Assembly (NCBI GenBank): GCA_963806035.1
Contig: CAWDWO010000009.1
Location: 8,801 to 72,800, forward strand
Direction: 5' to 3'
From: Candidatus Krumholzibacteriota bacterium
Lineage (GTDB): Bacteria; Krumholzibacteriota; Krumholzibacteriia; JAJRXK01
Length of the DNA: 64,000 nucleotides
The translations under genes and the position numbers were made by a program. The notes under the pieces were generated by a model. That model was given only the letters and a program-made list of their open reading frames with translations. It had not been told where the DNA came from and searched no databases. The stretch's first letter is position 1. Every line of letters begins with the position of its first letter. This document shows, in pieces, positions 8,175-46,141 of the stretch.

Positions 8175-10010
8175 TCAGAAGGCCTGTCCGACTCCGATGC
8201 TCACGACCGGCGCCGACCGATGCGTGGAATAAAGGATCGGCCAGGCGAAGTCTACACGGAGTGGCGCATTCAGCGAGGCTCGATCCATACCCAGGCGAAA
8301 TCCGAAACCCACGGCCCCGCGCATGTCTCCCAGCAACAGATCGTGCTCGTCCTCGAACCACGCGGTGCCAAAATCGGCGAAAGCCGCCATGCCGGGCGTC
8401 ACCAGACTGCCAAAGCCCGAGCGATATACCCAGCGCATTTCCAGGTTGGCTCGTAGTAGACGGTCCCCCGCGTATTCGCTGGGACGGGCCGAACGCAAGC
8501 CGTTGTCGATGCCCAGAGTATAAACCGAGTTGCGGTCGAGGTTGCTGCCGGTGGCTGCCAGCAGCGAGCCGGCGGCGCTGAAGGCATCGGAAAAGTACTG
8601 GTTTAGCCGCGCGCGGAACTGGGCCCGCATGTTGGGATCGCTGCCCGCGGCCAAGTGCCCCGTGGCGGAAGCGTCCAGCCGAACCACGGTGCCTCCGGAA
8701 ATGATGTTCCACCGCTCCTCTCCGGAAAACCACGAGCCGTCGAAGCTGCTGCCCATGCCGCGGCTGATCCAGCCCAAGGCCAAAGAGAGCTGGTGACCTT
8801 TGGCGATGTCCTCGCGCTGGCCCATGCGATCCAGGTAGCGACGGGAAGCGTAGTTCAGGGGTGTGCGATCGAGAGTGACGATCGGTCCGTAGACGTCGCG
8901 GTTCTCGGCGAACTTGCCGCCGAGATCGATGCTGCCCACCGCATTTCCGGCCGGATCGTAGATGGGCGCCGCGGGCAAGGGGCTGAAGCGCTGGGTCTCG
9001 ACCCTGAATCCGACACCGAGGCGCAGCACGCCCTCGCCCCACCTGCCGCTGCGGCGCTGCAGCTCGAGCCGCGCTTGGGAGAAGTCGCCGTGCGGTCGCA
9101 CATATTTATCGCCGGTCAAGTAGTAGCGGGGCGAGGTTCCGGCATGCAGATATTGGGCGCGCCACGCCCACTGCGATTCGAGCTGAAAAAACGGCCGGTC
9201 CAGATGCCAGGCGAAAGAGCCCCCGTCGGAGGCGTCGCTGTAATCCGCCCCGCCGTCCCACTTGCCGTCGAGGAAATGACGGTCGCGGTAGCCCAGTTCC
9301 CAGCTGGTACGATCGAGGTCCTCGTTGCGCGCCAAGGAAGCCTGCCGCCCCGTGCCGAGCAGGTTGGACTCCATCGCGCGGAAGGAGAGTAGCGTCGTGT
9401 TCTCGAACTTCTCGAAGCGGATGTCGAAGTTCGTGGTCCAGACCTCGCGCGTGTGGACGTAGAGATCGACGCTGTCAGGGGCAACGTGTTCGGTCTCCAG
9501 GCTCACTTCCACCAGGTAACCGGTCGCGCGCAGCTTGCGTTCGCTTTCGGCGAGAAGCTCGGGGTCGGCCCGGTCGCCCTCGTGAACCAGAAGTTCGCGT
9601 CGGATGGTCCGGCGGCGCGTGTCGATGTGAACGGCGTTGACCAGCCCCAAAGGCAGCCAGGGAACTTGGGCACAGTCACTTTCGGTGAAGATGGGCTCGC
9701 GTTCGTAGATCACCCGCCGGATGTAGGGGGCGGGCGCGTCGGACCACTCCGGATCGCTGGCCCTGTGGGCGGCATCCTGCCGCGCGGCGGGAACATTCGC
9801 GGCGGAGTCGAGCGCGCGATCGCCTGGATCGGCGGCCGCCGATCCGCGAGCGGCCTGGGCCGAGGCCGCGCCGAGGCTGAGGAGCAGAGCCGCGAGCAGG
9901 GCCAGGGCGCCCGTCCGCGGGCAAGCACCCTTCCGGAGCGCTCGTTCCAGCCGCGCCGTCCACCCTGGATTCGAGACTGACATTTCCGTCCAGATCGTAC
10001 GAGGTGTCAT
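8175..10010 (-). CDS. Omp85/BamA-like outer-membrane protein (POTRA + surface-antigen beta-barrel)
   Basis: Signal-like segment ALALLAALLLSLGAASAQA and a C-terminal beta-barrel ending in aromatic F (GVGQAF). The start may instead be the internal Met at 9983. Confidence 0.6.
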   Translation of the reverse strand: MTPRTIWTEMSVSNPGWTARLERALRKGACPRTGALALLAALLLSLGAASAQAARGSAAADPGDRALDSAANVPAARQDAAHRASDPEWSDAPAPYIRRVIYEREPIFTESDCAQVPWLPLGLVNAVHIDTRRRTIRRELLVHEGDRADPELLAESERKLRATGYLVEVSLETEHVAPDSVDLYVHTREVWTTNFDIRFEKFENTTLLSFRAMESNLLGTGRQASLARNEDLDRTSWELGYRDRHFLDGKWDGGADYSDASDGGSFAWHLDRPFFQLESQWAWRAQYLHAGTSPRYYLTGDKYVRPHGDFSQARLELQRRSGRWGEGVLRLGVGFRVETQRFSPLPAAPIYDPAGNAVGSIDLGGKFAENRDVYGPIVTLDRTPLNYASRRYLDRMGQREDIAKGHQLSLALGWISRGMGSSFDGSWFSGEERWNIISGGTVVRLDASATGHLAAGSDPNMRAQFRARLNQYFSDAFSAAGSLLAATGSNLDRNSVYTLGIDNGLRSARPSEYAGDRLLRANLEMRWVYRSGFGSLVTPGMAAFADFGTAWFEDEHDLLLGDMRGAVGFGFRLGMDRASLNAPLRVDFAWPILYSTHRSAPVVSIGVGQAF

Positions 10011-10022: not shown

Positions 10023-10130
10023 GTGTGTCGAGGGCCTCTGTCAGCATCCTGCGGGGAGCCTTCCCCAGGGTGGAGTTCTAAGTGAATGGTGCACAATCCT
10101 TTAGCGGATGGCAAGCAAAGCCTTTCGGGC

Positions 10131-10146
10131 TTGGCACCCAGCTTGA
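10131..10146 (+). promoter_or_regulatory. candidate sigma54 (-24/-12) promoter TTGGCAC-N5-TTGA upstream of hsp20
   Basis: The GG and the -12 element have correct 10-nt spacing, but the -12 reads TTGA instead of the consensus TTGC. It is about 70 nt upstream of the hsp20 start. Confidence 0.3.
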
Positions 10147-10217
10147 TATGGCCTGGGTACGAGCGCAGGACAATGCGAACCCCTCGCACTGCAGCGAGAG
10201 ACGAAAGGAATGAAACC

Positions 10218-10634
10218 ATGCGTAACAAGATGCTGACTCCCTTTGATGCCTTCGATGCCCTCTTTGACGGTCTGGGCCGTTACTCCCTGGCCGAGGAAGG
10301 CGAGACCCTTTTGACCCCCCGCGTCGACATCCACGAGGATGAGGCGGAGTTCACGGTCGAGGTCGACCTCCCCGGCGTCAACAAGGACGACCTGAAAGTC
10401 GAGGTCGAGAACGGCAACCTCATCATCGAGGCTCAACGCAAAGTGAAGCCCATGGCCGAGACGAGCAAGGCCATCCGGATCGAGCGCGTCGCGCGCGCCA
10501 GCTACCGCCGCACCTTCTCCCTGGGAGACGAGATCGACGGTGAGGCCATCAAGGCCGAATTGCGCGACGGCGTGCTGCACGTGTCTCTCCCCAAGCGGGA
10601 GAAGGCGCTGCCGAAGCGCATCGAAGTCAAGTAA
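10218..10634 (+). CDS. Hsp20/alpha-crystallin family small heat-shock protein
   Basis: The alpha-crystallin domain (FTVEVDLPGV...LKVEVENGNLII...GVLHVSLPK) starts at the ATG at 10218, which has an AAAGGA RBS. The track ORF is extended upstream. Confidence 0.85.
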   Translation: MRNKMLTPFDAFDALFDGLGRYSLAEEGETLLTPRVDIHEDEAEFTVEVDLPGVNKDDLKVEVENGNLIIEAQRKVKPMAETSKAIRIERVARASYRRTFSLGDEIDGEAIKAELRDGVLHVSLPKREKALPKRIEVK

Positions 10635-10820: not shown

Positions 10821-11360
10821 ATGACCGATAGCGCAAGCCTCTACCCGCTCCATTTCGGCGAAGTACTCAACGTTCTCCCTGAATATGAGGAATATCGCGA
10901 CGCGGAAAGCTCATACCGTGGCGAAGCGCCCTTCCGCATGGCGGTGGGCCGCCACGTGAAGGACTGGGGCGAGAGGCTCCTGGACCTCTCGGAGTTCCAG
11001 GGCAACCTTCTTCCCCGCCGTGACCTGCGCGTGGTGGACCACATGGTGAGCACGGTGACCGACATCTTCAGCACCCTCAACTGCGGCGGCCAGATTCGCC
11101 GCGTTCCCGTGGATTCTTCCACTCAGGATGAGCTGCGCGCGTGCGACACGCGAATCCTGCGCCTCTTGGAAGAGGAAAGCGAGCTTTTGGACGGGATGCA
11201 CCGCGCCGAATGGGCGGGAGAATGGCTCGAGCACGACGCGCGTGAATTCTACCGCAAGCTGCGCAGCCTCAAGCGGGAACTCCTCGACCGCAACCTGTTG
11301 CTCGGCCTGCGCGGCTCGGCCAGGCGCGACCGCAGGCAACCCGGCATCGAGCTCATTTAG
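10821..11360 (+). CDS. hypothetical protein
   Basis: 179-aa ORF in a region free of competing genes. No recognisable domain. Confidence 0.4.
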   Translation: MTDSASLYPLHFGEVLNVLPEYEEYRDAESSYRGEAPFRMAVGRHVKDWGERLLDLSEFQGNLLPRRDLRVVDHMVSTVTDIFSTLNCGGQIRRVPVDSSTQDELRACDTRILRLLEEESELLDGMHRAEWAGEWLEHDAREFYRKLRSLKRELLDRNLLLGLRGSARRDRRQPGIELI

Positions 11361-11417: not shown

Positions 11418-12692
11418 ATGAAAGCTCCGTTCTTTTCGCGTCTGACCGCTTCCATCCTCCTCTGCGCAAGCTTCCTGCTCGCCGCTGCGGGCCTGGCGGC
11501 AGCGCAGAATCCTTTCTTGAAGGAGCAGGCGCCGCGGGTCATCAAGGAAATCCAGATCACGGGCAACACCACCACAAAGGAATACGTGCTGCGGCGCGAA
11601 CTCGGATTCCAGGAGGGTGATGTCTACGACGATGACGCGCTGAACGATGCTTGGTACCGGCTGGAGCAGCTGAATTTCATCGCCTACGTCGACATCCAGG
11701 TCGAACGCAGCGCTCCGGGCGAGGTCATCCTGAAGATCCAGATCGAAGAGGACAATCGTTTCGATTGGCGGCCCTACCTGCGTTGGGAAAGACGCTTCGA
11801 CTGGCTCTACGGACTCTCGGGACAAATGATCAACTTCCGGGGCCGCGCGGAAACTCTGTGGGCGCGCGCCTACGCGGGACACAAGCAGCACCTTTCTCTG
11901 GGCTGGCAGAACCCGTGGATTCTGGGGCGCACGCACCTGGGCGTGGGAGTCAGCGGCTACTACGAACGCTACCGTTTCGTCTATCTGCCCTTCCGCCTCG
12001 AGGATGCGGGTGGCAGCCTCGACCTGTGGCACGATCTGACCAAGAATTTGCAAGTCACGGGCAACTACACCTACAGGGGTCTCACGATCAGCGAGTCCGG
12101 CTCCTCGCTGGCCGATCAGAGCATCTCCGATCCCTACCTGAAGGCCGGGCTGGACTACGACAGCCGCGACCTCCGCTACTATCCCAGCCACGGCGTCCAC
12201 GCCAGCGCGCTGGCCACGCTCGGCGCAGTGGGCTCGGGAGACCTTTCGAGCTATTCCTACTTCGATCTCTCGCTGGCCGGCTACCAGGCGCTGCCCTACC
12301 TGGGCATACTGGCCTCCCGGGTCAGCTATCGCGGCACCGGCGACAGTCTGCCGGTCTACGAGCGTAGCTATCTGGGGGGACCCGACACCATCCGCGGCGT
12401 CGATTTCTCCAGCGTTCGCGGCGACGAGAACTTCTTGGCCACCATCGAGCTACGCCGGCCCGTTTTCCTGGTGCCCCTGCGGGAAGGAAGAGCCGTGGGC
12501 CTGGGCTTCCACGCCTTCGTCGACTGGGGTACGGCCTGGGAGGCCGCGCAGAGCATCAGCGACGCCAAGATGCGCCATTCGGGAGGGATCGGCCTCCACC
12601 TCAATCTGAACACCTACAATCTGCGCTTCGAATGGGCATTCAGTGATCACGACGGCAACAGCTTCATCTTTGCCGATCGATTCACCTTCTGA
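11418..12692 (+). CDS. Omp85-family outer-membrane protein with a single POTRA domain
   Basis: Signal peptide (LLAAAGLAAAQ), a POTRA-like N-terminal module (IKEIQITGNTTTKEYVLRREL), and a surface-antigen beta-barrel ending in aromatic F (ADRFTF). Confidence 0.65.
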   Translation: MKAPFFSRLTASILLCASFLLAAAGLAAAQNPFLKEQAPRVIKEIQITGNTTTKEYVLRRELGFQEGDVYDDDALNDAWYRLEQLNFIAYVDIQVERSAPGEVILKIQIEEDNRFDWRPYLRWERRFDWLYGLSGQMINFRGRAETLWARAYAGHKQHLSLGWQNPWILGRTHLGVGVSGYYERYRFVYLPFRLEDAGGSLDLWHDLTKNLQVTGNYTYRGLTISESGSSLADQSISDPYLKAGLDYDSRDLRYYPSHGVHASALATLGAVGSGDLSSYSYFDLSLAGYQALPYLGILASRVSYRGTGDSLPVYERSYLGGPDTIRGVDFSSVRGDENFLATIELRRPVFLVPLREGRAVGLGFHAFVDWGTAWEAAQSISDAKMRHSGGIGLHLNLNTYNLRFEWAFSDHDGNSFIFADRFTF

Positions 12693-12731
12693 TTCTGGCG
12701 AGGCTTCCCTCGACCGAAAGGAGGTGCGGGC

Positions 12732-13787
12732 ATGAGCGAGGCAGAGCGAATCCGTCTCACCCAGTACGCCGGCGCCGCCGGTTGAGCGGCCAAGATGAGC
12801 CCGGAGGATCTGGGCTCGATCCTGGAAGATTTGGTCACAGCAGAAGACGATCCGAGGGTATTGGTGGGCCTGCAGTCCTCCGACGACGCCGGAGTCTATC
12901 GTCTGGACGACGAGCGCGCACTGGTGTTCACCGTCGATCTGATCACGCCGATCGTGGATGATCCGCGCGATTTCGGACGCATCGCCGCCGCGAACTCGAT
13001 CAGCGACATCTACGCCATGGGCGCCAAGCCCCTCATGGCGCTGAACGTCTCGGGCTTCGAGCCCAAGCTGCCGGCGCAGATCTACCGGGAAATTCTCCAG
13101 GGCGCGCGCGAAGTGGCCCACGAGGCCCGCGCGGTGATCCTGGGCGGCCACACCATCAAGGACAAGGAGATCAAGTACGGCCTGGCCGTGGTCGGAGAGG
13201 TGCATCCGCAGAAAATTTTGCGCAACACCGGGGCCCAAGAGGGAGACGCCCTTCTGCTCAGCAAGGCGCTGGGGACCTCCGCTCTGGCCACCGCTTTCAA
13301 GAACGGCGCCTTCGATGAATCCGACTCGCGCTATCGCGCCATGGTCTCTTCCATGACCCGTCTCAACCGGGAAGCGAGCGTGCTGGCTCAGGAGTTTGGC
13401 GCCCATGCACTCACCGACGTCACCGGCTTCGGTTTGAGCGGACACATGCTGGAAATGCTCACCGGAAGCGAGCTTGGCTTTCGGATCCGCTTGAGCTCTC
13501 TTCCGGTGCTCGAGGGCGCGCTGGAGATGCTGGCGGCGGGATACACCTGTGGCGGCGGCGAAGCCAACCGCAAACGGGCCCTGGACAAAATAGAACTGCC
13601 CGAAAAAATCGAACTCCATCAGGAATACCTTTTACACGATCCACAAACTTCCGGCGGCTTGCTCATGGCGCTTCCCAAGGAACGGGCGCCCGCCTTGCTT
13701 GCCCGCCTGCAGGAAAGCGGGCACGCGGCCGCCATCGTGGGCGAGGTCGTTGGCCCCTCGAAGCAGCCGCTGCACATTCTCGCCTGA
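12732..13787 (+). CDS. selD: selenide, water dikinase (selenophosphate synthetase) with selenocysteine at the catalytic position
   Basis: The ATG at 12732 has AAGGAGG 8 nt upstream. It encodes MSEAERIRLTQYAGAAG-[TGA]-AAKMSPEDLGSIL, colinear with E. coli SelD [20 protein letters not shown]. The TGA aligns with catalytic Cys17, and the rest of the protein is a full-length SelD (DDAGVY, GGHTI, DVTGFG motifs). Confidence 0.8.
12788..12825 (+). promoter_or_regulatory. candidate bacterial SECIS stem-loop immediately 3' of the selD UGA
   Basis: ccaagat-GAGCCC-ggaggatct-GGGCTC-g-atcctgg forms an interrupted stem of about 13 bp starting 3 nt after the UGA, with the apical loop 18-26 nt downstream and a GG in the loop. 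Confidence 0.45.
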
Positions 13788-19708: not shown

Positions 19709-22648
19709 TCAGGAGAGCTGCCCCCCGGGAGTCTCGCCCACCGGGTTCTGAGTGAAGCTGAGAACCGAAAGAGCGGCGGGTTGTCCGAGTTCTCGGATGG
19801 CCCACTCGTAGCGGGAATGCTGACAGGCCAAGAGCAGTACCTGTTGTTTGTCGGCAACGGTCGAGAGCAGCATCTTCAATCCGGCAATCAATCTTGCGTC
19901 GTCGGCGTGGGCGAAGGGGTCATCAAGAATCAGCGGCAGGGAACCCTCATCCCCGCTCAGAAGGTGGCTCACCGCCAAGCGCGCCGCGAGGTACACGCCG
20001 TCCCGGGCCCCCGCGCTGAGCTGCTGATCTACCTCGACCTTGGTCAAGAGCTTCTGCTCGTGCATCAATTCAAACTCGAGATTCTCGTTGAAGTGAATGT
20101 CGCGACTGCCCGTGCCCAGCCGCCCGAGGAGGACCTGGGCTTCCTGGTTGAGCTGGATTGCCCAGGCCGCGTAGGTTTCACGCGATATTTCGTTGAGCGC
20201 ATCGTGAGCCAGAGTCACCGCGTTCTTGAACTCTTGGGCGCGGCGCCGGGCCGCGCGCAGCTCTTCGAGCCGCGCATTCAGTGGCCCCACTTTCTCCTCG
20301 TAGTGGCGCAGAAATGCCCTGACCGTGGTGAGGGAGTCCTCGCGTCTCTGGGCTTCGAGCTGATCCTGCTCCGTGAGTTCACGCTCTCGATCCTCGAGTT
20401 TCTCGCGCAGCTCCCGGACGCTCAGCTCGGCGGGGAGAGTGATCTCCTGCGTCGACTCGATCGCGTGAACCGGCGCATCGTCCGCGTGAACCGGCGCATC
20501 GTCCGCGTGAGCCCTCAGCGCGGATTCGGCCTCTTGCACACTCTGCCGCAGCTCCGCCAGAGTCCCCTCGCCGGGGGTGCTCTCTTTGAGCTTGGGTAGG
20601 CTGAGGTTGCGCCGGGATCTCGCTTCTTCTGCCGCCCTCGTTTTCTCCTTCAACTTGCGCGCGCTCTGATGCGCGTCGTCTTCGTCGAGAAGCTCCACCA
20701 GGCAGCGTTCGAGGGCTTCCCGCGCCTGAGTCCGGCGCTCCTTCAGGGCCTGGTCCTTCTCCTCGGCAAGTTCGCGGCGACTCCGCGCATTGGCCTCCGC
20801 CACCTCCGCCGCCGCGGTGAGCTTCATCACTTCGCGCAGCTCATTCAGCTTCTGCTCGAGCTCGTCCGCCTTGGGTTTGCCTCCAAAGACTTCCCAAGCC
20901 TCGCTCACGCTCTTCAGCGTTTCTTCCTCTTGCTTTTCGCACTCGAGCTGGCGTTCGTCGATCCCCGCCAGAGTATCCAGGTTACGCTCAACCAGCCGCA
21001 GCGACTGATAGCGCGTGTAGAGCTCGTCGGTGGGAATGCCCAGACGATAGGCGAGATCCTGCCAGGCCAGTTCGTGCTCCTGGTTCCTCTCTTCGATTTC
21101 GTGCACTTTTTTACTGCCATCTGCCACTCGACCGGCGGCAACCGATTCCTCTTCCGCACGCATGCCCTTGGCGCTCACGAGGAAGTAGAGGCCCAGAGTG
21201 ATCACGGCCCCTGCCAGATAGGGGAGAAAGCTCGTGATCGAAGCGAAGCTCTGCGGAAGAAGGAGTCCGGTGGCGAGGAGTGCAGCACCCACCGCGGCGG
21301 TGACGCCTCCCCATCTTCTCCTTCGCATTCGCGCTGCACGGATTTCGTCGAGCTGCCGCTGCCACAGCGAAAGGTCCTGCCGTGAGTTTTCCCTCAGCTC
21401 GTCGATCTCGAGGTCCCTGCGGGTGTGACTCTGCAGGAGTTCACGGTCTTCCTCGGTGAGGTACTGCAGCGCCTCGAGCATGGTGCTGGCCTGATCGGGA
21501 TCGAAACCCTCTTCGCGGATCGCCTCGCGTTCCCGCTGTGCCCGCTCTTCCAGGCGCTCCCGATCCTTGCGAATGTCTTTCAGACGAGCGCTGGCGTTCG
21601 AGAACGCCTCGACATCTTCCGCGCGGGGCAGGCGCTTCAGGCCAAGTTCATCACGAGCACGCTGTTTTTCGCCGCATTCGGCTTCGGCCTCGCGCGCGTC
21701 CTTGGAGTAGGATTCCGCGGTTCGCTGGGCCCCCTGCCAGCGGTTACACGCCGTTTCCGCCTCCTGAAAGCTCTCCGGGCTCAGCGCGGCGAGTTCCGCC
21801 TCCTCCTCTACTTTGCGCTGCAACTCCGCCAGCTCTTCCCGCCGCTGCTCGAGCGCGGCGAGCTCCTCCTCGAGCTCGCGCAATCGCAGACGCAGGCGCG
21901 CTCTCTCGATCGCTCCGCGCAGGGCCTGTCGCTCCTGCTTGCGTGACTCGCTCTTTCGCAGCGCTTCGATGCGATCGCTCAGGGCTTGGCGTTGCTCATG
22001 AAGCTCGCCGAGCTCGTTCTCGATGTCCGCGATATCCTTGTCACAGCGCGCGATCTCCGTTTCGACCTTGCCCTTGCCGGCCAGAGTGGTGCCCTCGTAT
22101 TCGGCCAGGCCCTTTTCCAGGGCGCGCAGCGCGGCGGCCGCCGTCGATTCGAGCGATTGCGAATCGGCCATGCGCTGAATGGCCTCGCTCAGGCCCGAGG
22201 CATCCCCCCAGCCGACTTCGCCCTGGCGGATGAACGCACTGTGCAGAAAGTGTTCGCGGGAGATTCCGAGCAGCAGCTCGCCGACCTGCACGTGTTTTCC
22301 GCTGCGAAAGCGGTCGCTGATGTTCTCGCCCGCCGCGAGCACGCGCACCGAATCCTCGCGGAAATCCCGCTCGATGGTGAGTTCCTCCGCGCCGTGCCGC
22401 AGGCGCAGCACCAGGCCGTAGGGCCCTCCGTCCCAGGGACGGTAGACCTCCCACTCACTCAGCTTGCCCTTGGCGCGCCGCCTGTCCTTGTTCAGACCGT
22501 AGAGCGCGGCGAGAATTGCCTCCATCAGCGTGGTCTTGCCCGCCTCGTTGCGCTCGAGCAAAAGACCGAGCTTGCCCGCGCCGGGATCGAGGGAGTACTC
22601 CCCGCGGAGTTGGCCGAATCCCTTGATGCTCAGCTGCAGAATGCGCAT
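19709..22648 (-). CDS. SbcC/Rad50-like coiled-coil ATPase (YhaN/SbcE-like)
   Basis: N-terminal Walker A (NEAGKTTLMEAI), a long coiled-coil, and a C-terminal signature/Walker B (LILDDPFAHAD). Its start overlaps the stop of the upstream phosphoesterase as TAATG. Confidence 0.7.
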   Translation of the reverse strand: MRILQLSIKGFGQLRGEYSLDPGAGKLGLLLERNEAGKTTLMEAILAALYGLNKDRRRAKGKLSEWEVYRPWDGGPYGLVLRLRHGAEELTIERDFREDSVRVLAAGENISDRFRSGKHVQVGELLLGISREHFLHSAFIRQGEVGWGDASGLSEAIQRMADSQSLESTAAAALRALEKGLAEYEGTTLAGKGKVETEIARCDKDIADIENELGELHEQRQALSDRIEALRKSESRKQERQALRGAIERARLRLRLRELEEELAALEQRREELAELQRKVEEEAELAALSPESFQEAETACNRWQGAQRTAESYSKDAREAEAECGEKQRARDELGLKRLPRAEDVEAFSNASARLKDIRKDRERLEERAQREREAIREEGFDPDQASTMLEALQYLTEEDRELLQSHTRRDLEIDELRENSRQDLSLWQRQLDEIRAARMRRRRWGGVTAAVGAALLATGLLLPQSFASITSFLPYLAGAVITLGLYFLVSAKGMRAEEESVAAGRVADGSKKVHEIEERNQEHELAWQDLAYRLGIPTDELYTRYQSLRLVERNLDTLAGIDERQLECEKQEEETLKSVSEAWEVFGGKPKADELEQKLNELREVMKLTAAAEVAEANARSRRELAEEKDQALKERRTQAREALERCLVELLDEDDAHQSARKLKEKTRAAEEARSRRNLSLPKLKESTPGEGTLAELRQSVQEAESALRAHADDAPVHADDAPVHAIESTQEITLPAELSVRELREKLEDRERELTEQDQLEAQRREDSLTTVRAFLRHYEEKVGPLNARLEELRAARRRAQEFKNAVTLAHDALNEISRETYAAWAIQLNQEAQVLLGRLGTGSRDIHFNENLEFELMHEQKLLTKVEVDQQLSAGARDGVYLAARLAVSHLLSGDEGSLPLILDDPFAHADDARLIAGLKMLLSTVADKQQVLLLACQHSRYEWAIRELGQPAALSVLSFTQNPVGETPGGQLS
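20463..20504. repeat. perfect 21-nt tandem duplication inside the SbcC-like CDS (encodes HADDAPV x2)
   Basis: gcgtgaaccggcgcatcgtcc repeated twice back-to-back. It is in-frame and lies in a low-complexity linker. Confidence 0.6.
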
Positions 22649-23844
22649 TAGGCCTCGTAGTGGCTGTCCAAACGCCCCGTGGAAAGAGCATCCAGGCCGT
22701 AGAGCAGCGCGCGACGCACGGTCTCGGCCTCCTCCCCCTCGCTCTCCTTCAGCCGCTGGCGCAACTGCGCCACGAAGCGCTCCTCGGTGGTGCGAGCTTC
22801 GCTGAGCGGAGGATAGCGGTCCAGATCGACGTCCGGCGTGAGATGAGAGAGGTCGCTCACGAAGTGGAAATAGCGCGAGGCGATCTCTTCGAGAAAGCCG
22901 AGTTCGAGTCCTCGCGCGCGCCGCCCCGAGAGTTTGAGGTACACCAGGTCCTGCTCACGCGCGCCGCTCTGTCCCAGAGCTTCTTCCACTCTGGCCTGCG
23001 CGGCGTCCATGTACCTACAGGACGAGAGTTCGCAGTCGACCACGCGAAGCTCTCGAGGATCCAGCGGTACGAACTCCGGATGGGGGCCGGATTCGTCGAG
23101 TTCCACCACGAGCGCGCCCTTCTGGCCGAGTTCGTCCAGGCCCGCGGCCAGGAGGCTGCCGCTGTAGGCTCCGATCGCTACGCCGCTCGCACCGTGAAGA
23201 ACTTGGTGCTGGTGGTAGTGCCCCAGGGCGGTCCAGGCAAAACCCTGCGCGCGCAGTTCATCCTCGCTGAAGGGGTAGGTCGCCTTCTGGCTCTGCAGAT
23301 AGCCGCCGTCGTCACGGCTGCCGTGGAAAAGAAGGATCGGAATTTCACTCCGCGGCCGCTCGACGGGACTCGCCAATCGGCGCAGGCTGCTCGGCAGATT
23401 CGCCGCCACTCCACAGGCGGTGACCGAAATTTCCGGCCGCTGGGGCCACGGCACGCTGCGAAAATCCTCGTGCGCGAAGAGCTGTACGTTCTCCGGCCAG
23501 CGGAAGTCGCGCGTCCCCTCGCCCTGTTCCTGGCGGTACGGGGAGACCCCTCCGTAGGCGTCGTGGTTGCCGGGGGCCAAAAAGACCGGTTTGGGAGCAA
23601 TCGAAGCCAGAGTTTCGGCCACGAAGCGCAGGGTGTCGCTCTTGACCAGTTCGTCGTCGAAGAGGTCGCCGGGAATCAGGACACCGTCCAGATTCCGTTC
23701 CTTTACCAGCGCAAAGGCGGCGCGGAAGGCCTCGCGCCGCTCGCGTTCGCGCTGGGAGGCCCTGCGCGAATCCAGGCGCAGCTTGCCGGCGCGAAGAGGG
23801 GCGTCGAAATGAACGTCGGAGAGTTGCAGGAATCTCAAACTCAC
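22648..23844 (-). CDS. calcineurin-like metallophosphoesterase, SbcD/Mre11-like (YhaO/SbcF-like)
   Basis: N-terminal LQLSDVHFD and GDLFD...GNHD phosphoesterase motifs. It is translationally coupled to the downstream ATPase gene. Confidence 0.7.
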   Translation of the reverse strand: MSLRFLQLSDVHFDAPLRAGKLRLDSRRASQRERERREAFRAAFALVKERNLDGVLIPGDLFDDELVKSDTLRFVAETLASIAPKPVFLAPGNHDAYGGVSPYRQEQGEGTRDFRWPENVQLFAHEDFRSVPWPQRPEISVTACGVAANLPSSLRRLASPVERPRSEIPILLFHGSRDDGGYLQSQKATYPFSEDELRAQGFAWTALGHYHQHQVLHGASGVAIGAYSGSLLAAGLDELGQKGALVVELDESGPHPEFVPLDPRELRVVDCELSSCRYMDAAQARVEEALGQSGAREQDLVYLKLSGRRARGLELGFLEEIASRYFHFVSDLSHLTPDVDLDRYPPLSEARTTEERFVAQLRQRLKESEGEEAETVRRALLYGLDALSTGRLDSHYEA

Positions 23845-33185: not shown

Positions 33186-34082
33186 ATGGCTCAGGAACGC
33201 CGCTATGTGAAGAGAGAGGGCGCACCCCTCATGACCACGACTCTGTGGGATTACCGCTCGCAGAACTATCCCGGAAGCCGTCAGGGAAATCCCGACTTCG
33301 CCGGAGCCACTCCCAGCTACATCATCTGGAACCTGCTACAGCGCTACACGCAGCCCAAGTGGCTCGTGGTGGATCCCATGGCGGGAAGCGGAACCACCCT
33401 GGACGTGGCCCGTGATCTCTCGCGCCGCGCTCTGGGTTACGACCTGAATCCCACGCGCAAGGATATTTTCCGCGCCGACGCCAGGCACCTGCCCCTGGAA
33501 TCGGGGAAAGCGGATTTCGTCTTCGTGGACCCCCCCTATTCCACGCACTTGAAGTACAGCGAAGAGGAGGAGTGTATCGGGGAACTCGATGCTCGAGTGG
33601 GGCCCGAGTACTTCTCCGCCATGGAGAGCGTGATCGCGGAGGTCCACCGGATTCTGCGCCGCGATCGCTACCTGGCGCTCTACGTGAGCGACTCCGCGCG
33701 CAAGGGGAAGAGCTTCGTCCCGCTCGGCTTCGAGCTCTTCCACCGTCTGAGACGACACTTCACCCCGGTGGATATCGTGGCCGTGGTTCGCCACAACCGC
33801 ACTCTCAAACGCGACCACTGGCACGAGAGCGCGGCCGAAGGCGGCTATTTTCTGCGGGGCTTCAATTACCTCCTCATCATGAAGAAGGAGATCGGCGCGA
33901 AGAAGGCGACGAGTGGCGTGGGACGCAGTTCGAGCAAAGCCGGTCCAAGCAAGCACCGCGCGAGCAAGCGGCGCCCCAAGAATGCCGCGACCAAACCGCG
34001 CGCCAAGCCGGTCGCCAATTCGCGATCCAAGTCACCGTCCAAGTCGCAACCCAAATCTCGATCCAAGACGCCGAAATCCTAG
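33186..34082 (+). CDS. SAM-dependent nucleic-acid methyltransferase (motif I DPMAGSGTT, motif IV DPPY) with a lysine/serine-rich histone-H1-like C-terminal tail
   Basis: VVDPMAGSGTTLDVA and VFVDPPYS are read in sequence. The last ~65 aa are highly basic with KSPSK/RSKSPSK/KTPKS SPKK-like repeats. Confidence 0.6.
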   Translation: MAQERRYVKREGAPLMTTTLWDYRSQNYPGSRQGNPDFAGATPSYIIWNLLQRYTQPKWLVVDPMAGSGTTLDVARDLSRRALGYDLNPTRKDIFRADARHLPLESGKADFVFVDPPYSTHLKYSEEEECIGELDARVGPEYFSAMESVIAEVHRILRRDRYLALYVSDSARKGKSFVPLGFELFHRLRRHFTPVDIVAVVRHNRTLKRDHWHESAAEGGYFLRGFNYLLIMKKEIGAKKATSGVGRSSSKAGPSKHRASKRRPKNAATKPRAKPVANSRSKSPSKSQPKSRSKTPKS

Positions 34083-35188: not shown

Positions 35189-36724
35189 CTACGGCGCCTT
35201 CACCGCTCCCAAGTCCCATGCCGTGCCCGAGCGCGTCTGCTGCAGGATGTCCCAACCGCGATCGGTCACGCCGGGATCCCAGTTGGGGTGCTGTGCATAG
35301 CTGAACGCCGCAATTCCCGCGCCCTTGGCGGGCGATTGCGCGGAGAGCGCGAAGTCGCGCGCGATCTCGAGCACTCGGTCGCTGCGCAGGACCGCGGTGC
35401 TGGGGATCCGCGGCGCGCTCAGACCCGCGGCCGCGCCGACGACACCGTGCGCTTCGGAGCTCAGATCCAGGTCACTCGTCGCGACGTTACCGTCGCTGAG
35501 ATTGTAGTCGTGGCTCACGCCGCCGGCGCCTCCCTCGCGCACCCAGATCAGGCGTCCGTCGCCGGAGGCCGCGGGCTGATTGGACTGGAAGATGTTGTTG
35601 AAGATCCAGGTATTGCCGACCGGCACGCGATTTCCGCGCAGTTCGAGGACTGCTCGCAGCTTGGAGCCGCTGTTACCCCAGAAGGTGTTGTTGTAGACCC
35701 AAACGTCGTCGCTGTTCATCACCGCCAGAGCCGCGTCGCCCTTGCATCCGACGAAGATGTTGTTGCGCACGATGGCGCCACGCACCACGTGCTGCGTTGG
35801 GTCGGGGATCCCCGCTTCCTCGGTCCCGATTCCCACCGCCGCGTTCCCGCAACCACCTCCCGCCGAGGGGCCGAAGACGTTGTTCTCGTAGAGGACGTTC
35901 TCGCAGTTGATCTTGGAGTACAGGAGCCAGTCGCCGCCATGGTCCGCGGTGTGGAAGAGCCAGCAGCCCCTGATCACCACATTGCGAATCTCCGCGTCGC
36001 TCGTCCCATTCAAGCCCCTGCCGAAGATGTCGATGTTCTCCTGGTACCACGCGCCGTTGCCGCAGGGGTCGATCGAGGGGTCGCGTTGCCCCGGATTGAA
36101 GGCCACCACGTTCTCGATCAAGAGGCCGTCGACCGCGCCCGAGACCTTGATGACATCACAGTCGTTGGGCGCGTCGTAGATCACGCAGTTCTGGATCTCA
36201 CAGCCGCTCGCGTCCAGCACGCGCACCAGACCATCGCCCTGGGGCCCCTGGTTCCAGTCGCCCCGGATCTCGAAGCCATCGATGGCCGCCCCCTGAACCT
36301 GCTCCAAGCGCACCGCGCTGCGGTCTTTCGAGTAGATGGACGCGGCCAGCGGACCGTCGGCGGAGATGACGCGCACCCCCGATTTCATATAGATGAAGCT
36401 CTCGTCGTACTCGCCGGCCTTCACCAGGACCGCCATCCCGGCCGCGCTCTGATTCACTCCCTTTTGGATGGTACGGCAGGGATGATCGGGATCGCCGCAG
36501 TCCGAAGTGTCGCTCCCGTTGACGGAGACGTAGATCGCGGGCCCGGTCCAGTCATTGCCGCCGCTTCCCGAACCGCCGCCGCCGGGGTTGGGGTCCACGG
36601 TGGGGATGTCGAGATCGGGCGAAGTGGTCGTGGGCGTGGTCTGATTGCCGCAGGCGATCAGGGCCGAGAGCGAGAGGGCGAAGACGAGCGAGAACATGAG
36701 ATACGTATGGGTACGAGTGGTCAT
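35189..36724 (-). CDS. lipoprotein with right-handed parallel beta-helix repeats (pectate-lyase-like fold)
   Basis: Lipobox LIACGN, a Gly/Ser linker, then repeated NxxI/V...G beta-helix-type segments (NNIFVGC, VYNNTFWGN, IFNNIFQSN). Confidence 0.6.
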   Translation of the reverse strand: MTTRTHTYLMFSLVFALSLSALIACGNQTTPTTTSPDLDIPTVDPNPGGGGSGSGGNDWTGPAIYVSVNGSDTSDCGDPDHPCRTIQKGVNQSAAGMAVLVKAGEYDESFIYMKSGVRVISADGPLAASIYSKDRSAVRLEQVQGAAIDGFEIRGDWNQGPQGDGLVRVLDASGCEIQNCVIYDAPNDCDVIKVSGAVDGLLIENVVAFNPGQRDPSIDPCGNGAWYQENIDIFGRGLNGTSDAEIRNVVIRGCWLFHTADHGGDWLLYSKINCENVLYENNVFGPSAGGGCGNAAVGIGTEEAGIPDPTQHVVRGAIVRNNIFVGCKGDAALAVMNSDDVWVYNNTFWGNSGSKLRAVLELRGNRVPVGNTWIFNNIFQSNQPAASGDGRLIWVREGGAGGVSHDYNLSDGNVATSDLDLSSEAHGVVGAAAGLSAPRIPSTAVLRSDRVLEIARDFALSAQSPAKGAGIAAFSYAQHPNWDPGVTDRGWDILQQTRSGTAWDLGAVKAP

Positions 36725-36817
36725 CGTGCACCGTCACGGAGAGGAAGATACGCAGCAGGAAATTTCCGCGACAGTCAAGACAGCACGATTGATGCCATTT
36801 GCGAGCCTGGGGTGCGG

Positions 36818-38308
36818 TCAGCCCCCGAGCAACCAGTGCATCGAGGCGTCCGCGAAGGCCTTCACCGGGCTCCAGTAGAGCCCCAGCACCAGGGTCGGCA
36901 CGGCGAGAACCACCAGAAGCACCATGTGAACCGGCGAAAGCCCCAGGCCCCCCTCGTCTTCAGAATGCTCGAAGAACATGGCTTTGGCGATGCGCATGTA
37001 GTAGTAGAGGCTGATCACGCTGTTGAGGACCGCGATGAACGCCAACCAGCCCATCTGCCCGTCGATCGCCGCCGCGAAGAGGTAGAATTTGGCGATGAAT
37101 CCGAAGGTGGGCGGAATTCCCGCGAGCGAAAGCAAGAAGACCACCATGATGACCGCGAGCAGGGGCTCGCGGAAGCCGATGCCCCGGTACTCGTCGATGT
37201 CCTCGCTGCCCAGGCGGTTGTTGAGCGCGATCACGACCAGGAAGGCGCCCAGATTCATGATGGCGTAGGCGATGAGGTAGAACAGGATGGCGGACAGGCC
37301 GGCCTCGCTCAAGAGCACGAAGCCGATGAGCAAGTAGCCGACGTGCGCGATGGAGGAATAGGCCAGAAGCCTCTTCACGTTCCTCTGACGAATCGCGGCC
37401 AGGTTTCCCCAGGTCATGGTGATCACGCTCAAGAACGCCAGCAGCCATGGCCACTGGATACTCGAGAGCGCCGCCATGGTGCCCGCGCCGTCCGATTGCA
37501 CCAGAGCGGTGTAGAAGAAGCGAATGAGGAGAGCGAAGCCGGCCGCCTTGGGTCCGGCCGCGAAGATCGCGGCCACCGGGGTTGGCGCGCCCTCGTAGAC
37601 GTCCGGCGTCCAGAAGTGGAAGGGCACCGCGGAGATTTTGTACCCGATCCCGGCCAGGATCAAAACGCAAGCGGTGAGGGTAGCCAGTTCGTTGCCCCCG
37701 AACACCAGTCTGTCGTGCAATCCGGTGAAGGACATCGCCCCGCTCAGGCCATAGAGAATGGAGGCGCCGTAGAGCATCAAACCGCTGCTTACCGCGCCCC
37801 AGAGCACGTATTTCAGGGAGGCCTCCGAGGAACGGAGGCTCATGCGGGCGTAGCCGGCCAGAATGTAGCTGGTGATCGAGACCAGCTCGATGGACAGGAC
37901 CAGCATGACGAGGTTGTTGGCCTCGGCCATGACCATCATGCCGAAGCAGAGCACCGCCAGATAGGCGTAGTACTCGCCCTTGTTCTCGCGGTCAGCTCCC
38001 ATGATTTCGCGGCTGCTGAAGCTGAATACGGCCACGATGAGGGTGACGGCCAAAAAGAGCACGCGGAAGAACTGGGCGTAGGGATCGACCACCATCATGG
38101 TCCCCATGATATCGTGCGCCCCGCGCGGCGGATTGGCGACCGCTACCGCGAGCGCCACGACCACGCCCAGAATGAGAACGCTCAGCGTCGCTCCATGACG
38201 GCGTTCACGCGTCAACAAATCCGTCAGCAAGCAGGCCACGAAGGTCAGGGCCATGATTGCCTCGGGCCAGAAGAACGCCGCGTCAGACCAGTTGAAACTC
38301 ACCGTCAT
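36818..38308 (-). CDS. nuoN: NADH-quinone oxidoreductase subunit N
   Basis: 496-aa antiporter-like subunit, last gene of the colinear nuo cluster. Confidence 0.85.
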   Translation of the reverse strand: MTVSFNWSDAAFFWPEAIMALTFVACLLTDLLTRERRHGATLSVLILGVVVALAVAVANPPRGAHDIMGTMMVVDPYAQFFRVLFLAVTLIVAVFSFSSREIMGADRENKGEYYAYLAVLCFGMMVMAEANNLVMLVLSIELVSITSYILAGYARMSLRSSEASLKYVLWGAVSSGLMLYGASILYGLSGAMSFTGLHDRLVFGGNELATLTACVLILAGIGYKISAVPFHFWTPDVYEGAPTPVAAIFAAGPKAAGFALLIRFFYTALVQSDGAGTMAALSSIQWPWLLAFLSVITMTWGNLAAIRQRNVKRLLAYSSIAHVGYLLIGFVLLSEAGLSAILFYLIAYAIMNLGAFLVVIALNNRLGSEDIDEYRGIGFREPLLAVIMVVFLLSLAGIPPTFGFIAKFYLFAAAIDGQMGWLAFIAVLNSVISLYYYMRIAKAMFFEHSEDEGGLGLSPVHMVLLVVLAVPTLVLGLYWSPVKAFADASMHWLLGG

Positions 38309-38311
38309 CTC

Positions 38312-39823
38312 CTAGCCGGGGATCATCCCGATGAGGGTGATGAGCGAAGTCTTGACCATGTTGATGAAGGGCGCCGGATAGACTCCGATGAAGATCACGA
38401 TGGCCGCCAGAGGGATCACCGTGGCCAGCTCGCGAGCGTTGATGTCCGGGATATCGGCGTACTTCTCGTTGAGGGGGCCCAAAAAGACCCTCTGCAACAT
38501 CCACAGCACGTAGGTCGCGCCGATGATGATTCCCACCGCGCTCACCATGGTCACCACGCGGTAGACGGGGAAGGCGCCCAGGAACACCAAGGCCTCGCCC
38601 ACGAAGCCGCTGAGACCCGGCAGGCCCAGAGCCGCGAACAGGGCCAAGCTGAAGACGGTGGTGTAGCGCGGCATCACCGAGCCCAAGCCACCGAAGCCAT
38701 TGATCTCGCGATGATGGGCGCGATCGTAGATGACGCCCACCATGAGGAAGAGCATGGCCGTGATCGTGCCGTGGTTGAACATCTGCAGCATCGCCCCGGT
38801 GATGCCGGCTTCGTTGAACACCGCCATCCCCAAGAGCACGTAGCCCATGTGACTCACCGAGGAATAGGCCACCAGCTTCTTCATGTCCTTCTGCGCCAAG
38901 GCGCAGAAGGCTCCGTAGATGATGTTGATCGCCCCCAGGATGGCCAGGGGCAGGGCGAACCAGCGCACCGCGTCGGGCAGGATGGGAAAGCAGATCCGCA
39001 GCATTCCGTAGGTGCCCATCTTCAGGAGCACCCCGGCGAGGATCACGCTGACCGCGGTGGGCGCCTCGACGTGCGCGTCGGGCAACCATGTGTGGAAGGG
39101 GAAGATCGGCACCTTCACCGCGAATCCGATGAAGAGGAACATGAAGATCAAGTGGCGCACGTTCACGTTCAGAAGCCATGCTCCGTGGTTCACCTGGTTC
39201 ATCATGTAGAGCATGTTGAAGGTGTGCTGCCCGGTGTTGGGATCGCGCACGTTCAGATAGAGCGCGATCATGGCCAAGAGCATCAGCACGGACCCGGCCA
39301 GGGTATACAGGAAGAACTTGATCGCCGCGTACTCGCGACGCGGACCGCCCCAGATGCCGATGAGGAAGTACATCGGGAGCAGCATCACTTCCCAGAACAC
39401 GTAGAAGAGGAAGAAATCGAGCGAGACGAACACTCCCATCATGCCGGTTTCCAACATGAGGAAGAGGGCAAAGTAGCCCTTGGTCGCCTTCTCGATCTTC
39501 CAGCTCGCTCCGATGCACAAGAACGACAGAAGGGCGGTGAGCAGAACCATCGCCACCGAGATGCCGTCCACCCCCACGAAGTAGTCGATGTTGAAGCCAC
39601 GGATCCAGGGGGTCTTCTGCCAGAACTGAATGGCGGAGGTTCCCCGGTCGAAGCTGAACATGAGCTGGATTGCGAGAGCGAGTGGGATGGCAGCGGTCAC
39701 CAAAGCCGTCCATCGATGCGCCGTCTTGTTGTTCGACGGCAACATCACCAGGATGGCCGCGCCCAGAAGCGGCACGAATGTCATCCAGGTCAACAGCGCG
39801 CTGGGGTTCGCGAGTTCGGTCAT
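38312..39823 (-). CDS. nuoM: NADH-quinone oxidoreductase subunit M
   Basis: 503-aa antiporter-like subunit with conserved NuoM motifs. Confidence 0.85.
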   Translation of the reverse strand: MTELANPSALLTWMTFVPLLGAAILVMLPSNNKTAHRWTALVTAAIPLALAIQLMFSFDRGTSAIQFWQKTPWIRGFNIDYFVGVDGISVAMVLLTALLSFLCIGASWKIEKATKGYFALFLMLETGMMGVFVSLDFFLFYVFWEVMLLPMYFLIGIWGGPRREYAAIKFFLYTLAGSVLMLLAMIALYLNVRDPNTGQHTFNMLYMMNQVNHGAWLLNVNVRHLIFMFLFIGFAVKVPIFPFHTWLPDAHVEAPTAVSVILAGVLLKMGTYGMLRICFPILPDAVRWFALPLAILGAINIIYGAFCALAQKDMKKLVAYSSVSHMGYVLLGMAVFNEAGITGAMLQMFNHGTITAMLFLMVGVIYDRAHHREINGFGGLGSVMPRYTTVFSLALFAALGLPGLSGFVGEALVFLGAFPVYRVVTMVSAVGIIIGATYVLWMLQRVFLGPLNEKYADIPDINARELATVIPLAAIVIFIGVYPAPFINMVKTSLITLIGMIPG

Positions 39824-39880
39824 CGGTCGAGTGCTCCTTCATGGGTGGACGGCGCTGCCGTCCGGTTCAGTCGTGCCCCG

Positions 39881-41869
39881 CTACGAGGGCCACGCCACTC
39901 GATACACGAGAATGAGAATTACCAGCCCCGAAATCAGGCCGAGCAAATAGGTTTGAATCCGTCCGGTCTGCAGGCCCCGCAGCGCACTGCCAAAGCTGCG
40001 CAGCAGCTCGCCCGTACCGTTCACCAGTCCGTCGACCACGGCATTGTCGAAAGCGCCGACGAGCCAACCGAGTGCTCGCGTGAAGTAGCCCACGCCATTC
40101 ACGATGCCGTCGACGATCAATTTGTCGAAGCCGGCAACGACCGAGGCCTTGGCCAGAGTTCCGCGAATGACGGTGTCGCGGTAGATCTCGTCGAACCAAT
40201 ACTTGTTCCACAGCAGGCGGTAGGCCCCCGGGAACGCGCGCTGCACGCGGGCACTGTCGATGAGCTTCGCCTTGTAAGTGAGCCAGGAAAGGAGAATCCC
40301 CAGGCCGGCGATGGCGAGCGAGGACCACATCGCAATGATGTGAGCGCTGTGATGCACTCCGTGCTCGGCGGATTCGTGCACGCCGGGATTCATCACGAAG
40401 CGGTGGAACCAGGCGGATCCCTGTGCGGTGAGCCCTCCCGCGACGACGGCGAGCGCCGCCAGCACCATGAGCGGAATCGCCATGCTCATGCCGACTTCGT
40501 GCGCGTGATCATACTTCTTCTCGTTGCGCGGCTTGCCGGTGAAGGTCATGAAGACGATGCGGAACATGTAGAAGGAGGTGAATCCGGCCGCGAGCAGTGA
40601 CATTGCAAAGGGCAGCCAGTGAACCGGGTGCTCCATCCCGAAGGCGAGCGCCGCGGCCAGAATGGCGTCCTTGGAATAGAAGCCCGAGAACGGCGGCACC
40701 CCGGAGATGGCCAGGGTGGCCAGGAGGAAAGTGGCGAAAGTGATGGGGAGCTTGTGCCTCAGTCCACCCATCTCGCGCATGTCCTGTTCGTGGTGCATGG
40801 CGTGGATGACCGCCCCACTCCCCAAGAACAAAAGGGCCTTGAAGAAGGCGTGGGTGGTCAGGTGGAACATTCCCGCGAAGACACCGCCCACGCCCACCGC
40901 CATCACCATGTATCCCAGCTGGCTGATGGTCGAGTAGGCCAGGCCGCGCTTGATGTCGGTCTGCACCACCGCCACCGTCGCCGCCCCCAATGCGGTGATC
41001 GCTCCCACGTAAATGATGAAGAGCAGCGCGCTAGGGGTGAACAGGGGGAAGAGCCGCGCGATCATGTACACGCCGGCCGCGACCATGGTGGCGGCGTGGA
41101 TGAGCGCGGAGACCGGAGTGGGGCCCTCCATCGCGTCGGGCAGCCAGATGTGCAGCGGAACCTGCGCGCTCTTGCCGATGCACCCCATGAAGAGCAGAAC
41201 CCCGGCCGCGGTCAAAAGGCCGCCCGAGAGCACTCCGCTGTGCACGCTCTCGAAGATGTGGGTGTAGCCAAAACTACCTGTCGTCGTGAAGAAGATCAAA
41301 ATCCCCAGCCAGAATCCGTAGTCGCCCACCCGATTGACCAAAAATGCCTTTTTCCCCGCATTGGCCGCCGAGGGTTTCTTGAAAAAGAAACCGATGAGGA
41401 GGTAGCTGGCCAAACCCACCAGCTCCCAGAAGATGTACAGGAAGAAGACATTGTTGCTGAGCACGATGCCCAGCATGGCGAAAGTGAACCAGCCCAAAAA
41501 CGCGAAGTATCGCGCGTAGCGTTCGTCGCCCTTCATGTACCCCATCGAGAAGACATGCACCCAGAAGGAGATGGTGGTGACCACCACCAGCATGATGGAT
41601 GTCATGCCGTCGACCAGGATGCCCGCGTCCACGTGGAAGCGCGCGATCTTGAACCAGGTCCAGCTCGCTTCGATTTTGTAGGCAGGATCGTCCAGGGCCC
41701 AGAAGTGGAAGAAGATGCGCAGCGAGAGGATCCAGGCGATGGCGAGCGCGGTCACTCCGATGAAATCACCGCGCCGCGGCAGCTTCTCCCCCAGGAAAAA
41801 GGTGAGAAGGTAACTGAGCAGCGGGAGCCCCAGGATGACGAGCGCCATTGTGATGATTTGTTGGTCCAC
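39881..41869 (-). CDS. nuoL: NADH-quinone oxidoreductase subunit L
   Basis: 662-aa subunit with the long C-terminal extension typical of NuoL. Confidence 0.85.
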   Translation of the reverse strand: MDQQIITMALVILGLPLLSYLLTFFLGEKLPRRGDFIGVTALAIAWILSLRIFFHFWALDDPAYKIEASWTWFKIARFHVDAGILVDGMTSIMLVVVTTISFWVHVFSMGYMKGDERYARYFAFLGWFTFAMLGIVLSNNVFFLYIFWELVGLASYLLIGFFFKKPSAANAGKKAFLVNRVGDYGFWLGILIFFTTTGSFGYTHIFESVHSGVLSGGLLTAAGVLLFMGCIGKSAQVPLHIWLPDAMEGPTPVSALIHAATMVAAGVYMIARLFPLFTPSALLFIIYVGAITALGAATVAVVQTDIKRGLAYSTISQLGYMVMAVGVGGVFAGMFHLTTHAFFKALLFLGSGAVIHAMHHEQDMREMGGLRHKLPITFATFLLATLAISGVPPFSGFYSKDAILAAALAFGMEHPVHWLPFAMSLLAAGFTSFYMFRIVFMTFTGKPRNEKKYDHAHEVGMSMAIPLMVLAALAVVAGGLTAQGSAWFHRFVMNPGVHESAEHGVHHSAHIIAMWSSLAIAGLGILLSWLTYKAKLIDSARVQRAFPGAYRLLWNKYWFDEIYRDTVIRGTLAKASVVAGFDKLIVDGIVNGVGYFTRALGWLVGAFDNAVVDGLVNGTGELLRSFGSALRGLQTGRIQTYLLGLISGLVILILVYRVAWPS

Positions 41870-41880
41870 GGCCTGCGCCC

Positions 41881-42192
41881 CTAGTGCCTGAGACGGTCCA
41901 CTTGCTCCACGTGGACGGTCTGAAAGTTACGAAAGATGGCCAAGACGATGGCCAAGGCAACCGCCGCTTCCGCCGCGGCCAAGACGATGATGAAAATGGT
42001 CATGAGCTGACCGCTCAGGTCCGCCGCGCCATACCTTCCGAAGGCCACGAAATTGAGCGCGGCCGAGTTCAGGATGAGTTCGACGCCCATGAGCATGACG
42101 ATGGCATTGCGGCGGCTCATCACGATGAACAGACCGAGTGCGAAGAGGATCGCCCCCAAAGTCAGATAGTGGACGAGGCCCACGTGCATCAC
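41881..42192 (-). CDS. nuoK: NADH-quinone oxidoreductase subunit K
   Basis: 103-aa, 3-TM protein with the conserved NuoK glutamate-containing helices. Confidence 0.85.
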   Translation of the reverse strand: MMHVGLVHYLTLGAILFALGLFIVMSRRNAIVMLMGVELILNSAALNFVAFGRYGAADLSGQLMTIFIIVLAAAEAAVALAIVLAIFRNFQTVHVEQVDRLRH

Positions 42193-43201: not shown

Positions 43202-43231
43202 TTCGTCCTCGCTTGAGGCGCCTGCGCGCGC

Positions 43232-44278: not shown

Positions 44279-44326
44279 GGCTGCCTTCGTCTCCTCTTTG
44301 CCCGGACCCGAGGGTCCCGCGGGCGC

Positions 44327-46116: not shown

Positions 46117-46141
46117 TGAGTTCGCTCCAAGATCTTCGCGA

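Follow-up and report, generated by a model that had tools for sequence, protein, structure and literature searches.

The 64,000-nt stretch of Candidatus Krumholzibacteriota DNA that we analysed (hereafter, the window) very probably encodes a selenocysteine (Sec)-containing selenophosphate synthetase (SelD; selenide, water dikinase) at positions 12732–13787 of the forward strand, in a gene whose 18th codon is an in-frame TGA. Because the catalytic residue is encoded by an in-frame UGA, gene callers begin selD 21 codons late, and the start that they report at position 12795 is an artefact. The evidence consists of an open reading frame, homology to SelD on both sides of the TGA, a Sec/Cys dichotomy at the catalytic position, conservation of the UGA among relatives and a constraint at the level of the RNA, each of which we observed directly.

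Translation from the ATG at 12732–12734 gives 17 sense codons, MSEAERIRLTQYAGAAG, then the TGA at 12783–12785, then AAKMSPEDLGSIL and onward in a frame that remains open to a TGA stop codon at 13785–13787. With the first TGA read through, the coding sequence comprises 351 codons plus the stop, and the full-length product has 351 residues. The ATG at 12732 is the earliest start codon after the in-frame stop codon of the upstream Omp85-family gene (12690–12692), which lies 39 nt before it. It is preceded by a consensus Shine-Dalgarno sequence that can be read directly on the same strand, AAGGAGG at 12718–12724, with a 7-nt spacer. The sequence-only reading from which this analysis started had observed that the six-frame track begins selD at 12795, had preferred the ATG at 12732 with AAGGAGG 8 nt upstream, and had described the frame as open through the TGA. 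The ORF list, where the called product is 330 residues long, and our translation bear out all three observations; from the last G of the motif to the first letter of the start codon the distance is 8 nt.

Gene calls in the databases and by ORF finders imply a different gene, in which the TGA is a genuine stop, selD starts at the internal ATG (12795–12797) and encodes a 330-residue SelD without its N-terminal loop, and the upstream 17 codons are a leader peptide or noncoding; that TGA is the commonest stop codon in the window fits with this. We nevertheless consider such a gene highly improbable. The ATG at 12795 has no Shine-Dalgarno motif upstream, unlike the ATG at 12732, and the residue that it encodes, Met22 of the longer product, is not conserved: other SelD proteins have Leu, Ile, Val or Phe there. 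The shortened protein would also be left without the Sec or Cys and the Lys that align with C17 and K20 of Escherichia coli SelD.

Profile searches place the N-terminal extension within the SelD family. The equivalog profile TIGR00476 (selD) matched the 351-residue product with 360.2 bits, the cut-off being 125, and was covered from position 1 to 310 of 311, with its first position falling on residue 8, inside the extension; NF002098 scored 333.6 against a cut-off of 299 and matched from residue 4. That SelD profiles begin to match at residues 4–8 is at odds with a start at 12795. PF00586 (AIRS) and PF02769 (AIRS_C) were both precomputed for P0001, a public protein identical to the called product of the window. 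By family membership, the predicted activity of the window SelD is the formation of selenophosphate from selenide and ATP.

Among solved structures the best match was E. coli SelD (3u0o; E = 2e-64), and in the HMMER alignment residues 5–340 of the query pair with residues 4–335 of the chain, the first 100 residues without a gap. The N-terminal loop G-A-A-G-U18-A-A-K21 aligns with G-A-G-C17-G-C-K20 of 3u0o, such that U18 is paired with Cys17 and K21 with Lys20, which we take from the SelD literature to be the catalytic Cys and an essential Lys. Likewise, D52, D69, N88, D92 and D229 of the window SelD align with E. coli D51, D68, N87, D91 and D227, presumably the ATP and metal ligands described in the 3U0O work. 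The residue-for-residue correspondence with E. coli SelD that had been proposed for this gene thus holds for the placement of the TGA at the Cys17 position, with an offset of one residue, window residue 18 corresponding to Cys17. The E. coli Cys17 form shares with the window protein the Lys, the Asp and Asn ligands and the N-terminal motif IRLTQY..GAG-C/U. It differs in carrying a second cysteine, Cys19 (GCGCK), where the window protein reads U-A-A-K, and its gene has neither a UGA nor a SECIS, whereas the window selD has an in-frame UGA and a SECIS-like hairpin.

To compare the gene within its clade we used seven distinct orthologous 5′ ends (the window, L001, L002, L005, L165, L166 and L167), which come from independent assemblies and samples (ENA, NCBI, JGI and Logan), lie at syntenic loci and encode proteins 68–88% identical to that of the window; the best genome match to the window SelD was a Krumholzibacteriota metagenome-assembled genome at 87% identity. 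Codon 18 is TGA in all seven, the Shine-Dalgarno AAGGAGG is unchanged and AGGAGGTG is conserved. Absence of the N-terminal segment from close relatives had been named beforehand as a result that would speak against the upstream start; all of them have RLTQY...G-TGA, with the TGA conserved. The amino acids of codons 1–17 are kept while the codons vary synonymously (Ile ATC/ATT/ATA, Arg CGT/CGC/CGG, Leu CTC/CTG), and these codons are therefore translated. They evolve as coding sequence homologous to SelD, which again argues against a genuine stop. Taken with the unconserved Met22 and the missing Shine-Dalgarno motif at 12795, the homology of the extension to SelD upholds the earlier proposal that the annotated gene start needs correcting. 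A relative with 60% identity (L168/L169) also carries TGA at the Sec codon. Because the TGA and the next 30 nt are invariant or nearly so in seven orthologues that have only 68–88% protein identity, we judge from these alignments that the feature is more than chance.

The same comparison bears on whether the TGA might have arisen through faulty sequencing or assembly, or through a nonsense mutation that recently turned the gene into a pseudogene. Metagenome-assembled genomes, of which the source is one, do contain errors, but the same TGA is present in seven orthologues from independent samples and at the same selD codon in many other phyla, and outside that codon the gene is undamaged and evolves under purifying selection in the seven orthologues. 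Error or decay of the gene is in our estimation vanishingly unlikely, and the conservation of the TGA would seem effectively to have refuted it already.

Across a wider set of genes the catalytic position alternates between Sec and Cys codons. When the extended N-terminus was compared with SelD homologues, as had been suggested for this gene, it proved homologous to them, and the homologues carry either TGA or TGC/TGT at the codon. Among 84 selD sites (the window and 83 fetched loci) there were 30 TGA and 54 TGC/TGT, and with metagenome loci added, 150 distinct selD genes divided into 69 with TGA and 81 with TGC/TGT. The metagenome scan yielded only relatives of at most 51% identity, which we used for this Sec/Cys comparison and not for covariation within the clade. 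Such alternation between Sec and Cys at a catalytic residue is the usual mark of a selenoprotein.

Downstream of the TGA the RNA is predicted to form a SECIS-like hairpin at 12790–12825 of the forward strand. Counting the U of the UGA (12783) as nt 1, its lower stem pairs 12790–12796 with 12819–12825 (nt 8–10 and 12–14 with nt 37–39 and 41–43), its upper helix of 9 bp pairs 12797–12805 with 12809–12817 (nt 15–23 with nt 27–35), and the apical loop, GGA, occupies 12806–12808 (nt 24–26). The segment 12783–12835 folds with a minimum free energy (MFE) of −22.3 kcal/mol (z = −2.55 against dinucleotide shuffles, of which 3 in 200 were equally stable), and the 48 nt downstream of the window TGA give z = −3.7 against mononucleotide shuffles. 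An earlier claim of a stem-loop beginning 3 nt after the UGA is thus right as to the hairpin and slightly off as to where it starts, since pairing begins at C12790, 4 nt after. A comparison of the fold with bacterial SECIS models had also been proposed. As set out in the legend of Fig. 2 of PMC13188914, the bSECIS consensus asks for an apical loop of 3–9 nt, an upper stem of 4–16 bp, a G in at least one of the first two loop positions, 16–37 nt between UGA and loop and an MFE of −7.5 kcal/mol or lower. The window hairpin has a 3-nt loop (GGA), a 9-bp upper stem, GG at the first two loop positions, a spacing of 20 nt and the MFE given above, and so agrees with the consensus as given there on every point.

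Two independent tests indicate that selection acts on this structure. Among the clade orthologues, degenerate codons whose amino acid is invariant were also invariant as codons in 7 of 9 cases at positions 19–29, but in only 29 of 162 at other positions (Fisher p = 2.9e-4), a synonymous suppression that points to an RNA-level constraint within the coding sequence. Among the 150 selD genes, the 48 nt downstream of the Sec/Cys codon fold unusually well only where that codon is TGA (mean z −1.79 in the 69 TGA genes and −0.34 in the 81 TGC/TGT genes; Mann-Whitney p = 6e-11). The conserved peptide AAKMSPEDLG accounts for part of the nucleotide conservation downstream of the TGA.

Support is not even along the hairpin. 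The RNAalifold consensus of the seven orthologues has 14 pairs, and a compensatory double change was found in none of the 14; the changes seen in the clade were one G-U to A-U in the upper stem, together with the loss in L167 of two pairs of the lower stem. A 7-bp core (12799–12815) is invariant in the clade, and two extra upper pairs occur only in the window and L005. From this alignment we consider the 7-bp core well supported, through conservation rather than covariation since the clade contains no compensatory pair, and the lower stem and the additional upper pairs of the window and L005 less so. Rfam gave no match at gathering score in the whole window, and at E ≤ 10 the interval 12700–12900 gave no SECIS match, its sole match being the sRNA CC2171 by chance (E = 7.9). 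This miss carries little weight because bacterial SECIS elements are short and lineage-specific. A scan for intrinsic terminators found no terminator-like site at the hairpin.

In gene architecture the window selD resembles other Sec-containing bacterial SelD, which combine a UGA and a coding-region hairpin directly after it with AIRS and AIRS_C domains. The SelD enzymes of Aquifex aeolicus and Haemophilus influenzae are natively Sec proteins; the A. aeolicus protein (PDB 2YYE/2ZOD), for which the 2yye sequence reads SSGCAAKVGPGDL with SSG-C-AAK, has the same G-x-AAK loop as the window protein. In BSepDB, the SelD of Acetomicrobium mobile reads SGUAAKLGPADL with the SECIS UGAGCAGCCAAAUUGGGUCCGGCGGACC (PMC13326102), its G-U-A-A-K loop being identical to that of the window SelD. 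That Sec-containing SelD is known in several bacteria, as had been stated for this gene, accords with the literature: PMC13188914 places SelD second among prokaryotic selenoprotein families by how widespread they are, and PMC1794560 names FdhA and SelD as the two most widespread bacterial selenoproteins.

The SECIS of E. coli fdhF is the reference bacterial SECIS. Like the window hairpin it lies within the coding region, immediately 3′ to the UGA, its helix starts at nt 15, 11 nt after the UGA, and its apical loop begins with G. It differs in having a bulged U, which the window hairpin lacks, and in its loop, GGUC at nt 22–25 as compared with GGA at nt 24–26. The two share no sequence similarity, and recognition of the window hairpin by SelB is a prediction.

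Where the window clade departs from other Sec-selD genes is in the register of the hairpin. The commonest first hairpin elsewhere is GGUCC-NNN-GGACC with its loop at nt 21–23, found in the BSepDB example and in 21 of 69 sequences, whereas the clade has GAGCCCGGA-GGA-UCUGGGCUC with its loop at nt 24–26, a shift of one codon in the 3′ direction. L168, the deeper Krumholzibacteriota relative, has the GGUCC-NNN-GGACC type, with the loop at nt 21–23. In many Sec-selD genes of other phyla the UGA is followed by two hairpins in a row, one with the loop at nt 19–24 and a second, GGCNCAGGUNCUGNGCC, with a GGU loop at nt 37–39 within nt 28–48, overlapping the L-A-Q-V-L codons; the loci with two hairpins include L015, L023, L029, L032, L036, L050, L061, L064, L068, L072 and L083. 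The second hairpin is absent in the window clade. One possible account, which we put forward tentatively and think rather doubtful, is that the SECIS of this clade was remodelled to a single hairpin, with its loop one codon 3′ of the form in L168 and most phyla and with the GGU-loop hairpin missing. In every feature tested the window selD is a member of the Sec-SelD family, and only the hairpin register is distinctive.

We also looked for the remainder of the Sec-decoding machinery and for what TGA otherwise means in the source genome. Neither selA nor selB, nor any other selenium-related gene besides selD, was present among the approximately 47 window ORFs annotated with Pfam and NCBIfam. With ARAGORN, the 64-kb window gave no tRNA gene of any kind and 32 related loci gave no tRNA-Sec, and the called genes flanking selD in relatives contain no SelA or SelB domains. 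A crude scan for further selenoproteins, in which split ORFs with high GC3 on both sides were joined by an in-frame TGA, gave no second candidate in the window; all that it returned besides selD were neighbouring genes in the same frame and antisense shadow ORFs. TGA closes 53 of the 87 stop-to-stop ORFs of at least 250 codons in the window, and it closes selD too, so TGA is still a stop in the source genome. We rejected genome-wide reassignment of TGA on this ground.

That the Sec machinery was not seen in the window fits with a UGA that is read through in some other way, with Trp, Cys or Gly supplied by a suppressor or near-cognate tRNA, or through a lineage-specific reassignment. We think this very unlikely, as TGA ends most long ORFs of the window including selD itself, and as a UGA placed exactly at the Cys/Sec position, with a structured element confined to the genes that carry TGA, is characteristic of Sec recoding. 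In addition, Sec-SelD has been found only in Sec-decoding organisms (PMC1794560). Under Sec insertion, the reading that we prefer, selA, selB and selC would be expected elsewhere in the genome, as had been anticipated when the gene was first described.

The proposed mechanism takes the bacterial pathway as its model for delivery of Sec by SelB (PMC1794560 and PMC13188914). Translation would begin at the ATG at 12732, behind the consensus Shine-Dalgarno, and the UGA at codon 18 would be recoded as Sec, with the adjoining downstream hairpin acting as a bacterial SECIS. The hairpin would tether SelB-GTP-Sec-tRNASec to the ribosome, and Sec rather than release factor 2 would be used at the A site; both the binding of SelB to the hairpin and the insertion of Sec at codon 18 are inferred by analogy with that pathway. 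Sec18 would then stand in place of the catalytic Cys17 in a flexible, glycine-rich N-terminal loop (G-U-A-A-K), beside the essential Lys. Since charging of tRNASec uses selenophosphate made by SelD, synthesis of full-length SelD would depend on its own product and on the selenium supply.

Several other features of the window were recorded in passing. Two Omp85/BamA-like genes lie upstream of selD, at 8175–10010 on the reverse strand and 11418–12692 on the forward strand, and between them are hsp20 (10086–10634) and a conserved 179-aa ORF without a family match (10821–11360). The order Omp85, hsp20, 179-aa ORF, POTRA-Omp85, selD, NYN-S1 and agmatinase is syntenic in all Krumholzibacteriota relatives examined. 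A pair of sbcC/sbcD-like genes at 19709–23844 on the reverse strand, encoding 979 and 398 aa, is inferred by synteny; at the equivalent positions L001 has a 963-aa AAA_23 gene (a weak Pfam match) and a 398-aa Metallophos gene. The ORF at 33186–34082 on the forward strand aligns with an N6_N4 DNA methylase profile in the C-terminal third of that profile only (ORF residues 11–95 against profile positions 134–219 of 221); it is separated by approximately 170 nt upstream from a divergent amidase gene and may be a truncated or remnant methylase. A complex I-type operon at 36818–47335 on the reverse strand contains nuoA, nuoB, nuoC, nuoD, nuoJ, nuoK, nuoL and nuoN, with a probable nuoH around 43232–44278, between nuoD and nuoJ, and a probable nuoM between nuoL and nuoN; nuoE, nuoF and nuoG were not seen among the scanned ORFs of this region. 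The ORF at 35288–40600 on the forward strand (1770 aa, GC3 0.58) is probably a shadow ORF antisense to the nuo genes.

Misannotation of SelD is described as frequent in PMC1794560, PMC13188914 and PMC13326102, and the records for this clade are of that kind. The public SelD proteins (P0001–P0008, and HKI84030.1 in nr, which is P0121) are 330 aa long and start from the internal Met22, and none of them includes the N-terminus with the Sec. HKI84030.1, which is nearly identical to the window protein, falls in the same 90%-identity cluster as the latter and is named SelD [Candidatus Krumholzibacteria bacterium] in nr, and one clade record is titled 'selenide, water dikinase SelD' by NCBI. The correct product has 351 residues with Sec18, and the 330-residue public form lacks the catalytic loop. 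The window gene is an ordinary Sec-selD of a well-known kind, for which only the annotation needs correction; our understanding of the Sec mechanism is unchanged, and the value of the finding lies mainly in that correction. A literature search for Krumholzibacteria together with selenocysteine or selenoprotein brought up a single paper, on an unrelated matter, and none linking the two. The gene marks the uncultured Candidatus Krumholzibacteriota as a selenium user with a predicted Sec-decoding trait, which is of use for metabolic reconstruction and for the correct calling of other selenoprotein genes in Krumholzibacteriota genomes. If SelD were also the only selenoprotein of the lineage, its Sec apparatus would be kept solely for the enzyme that feeds it.
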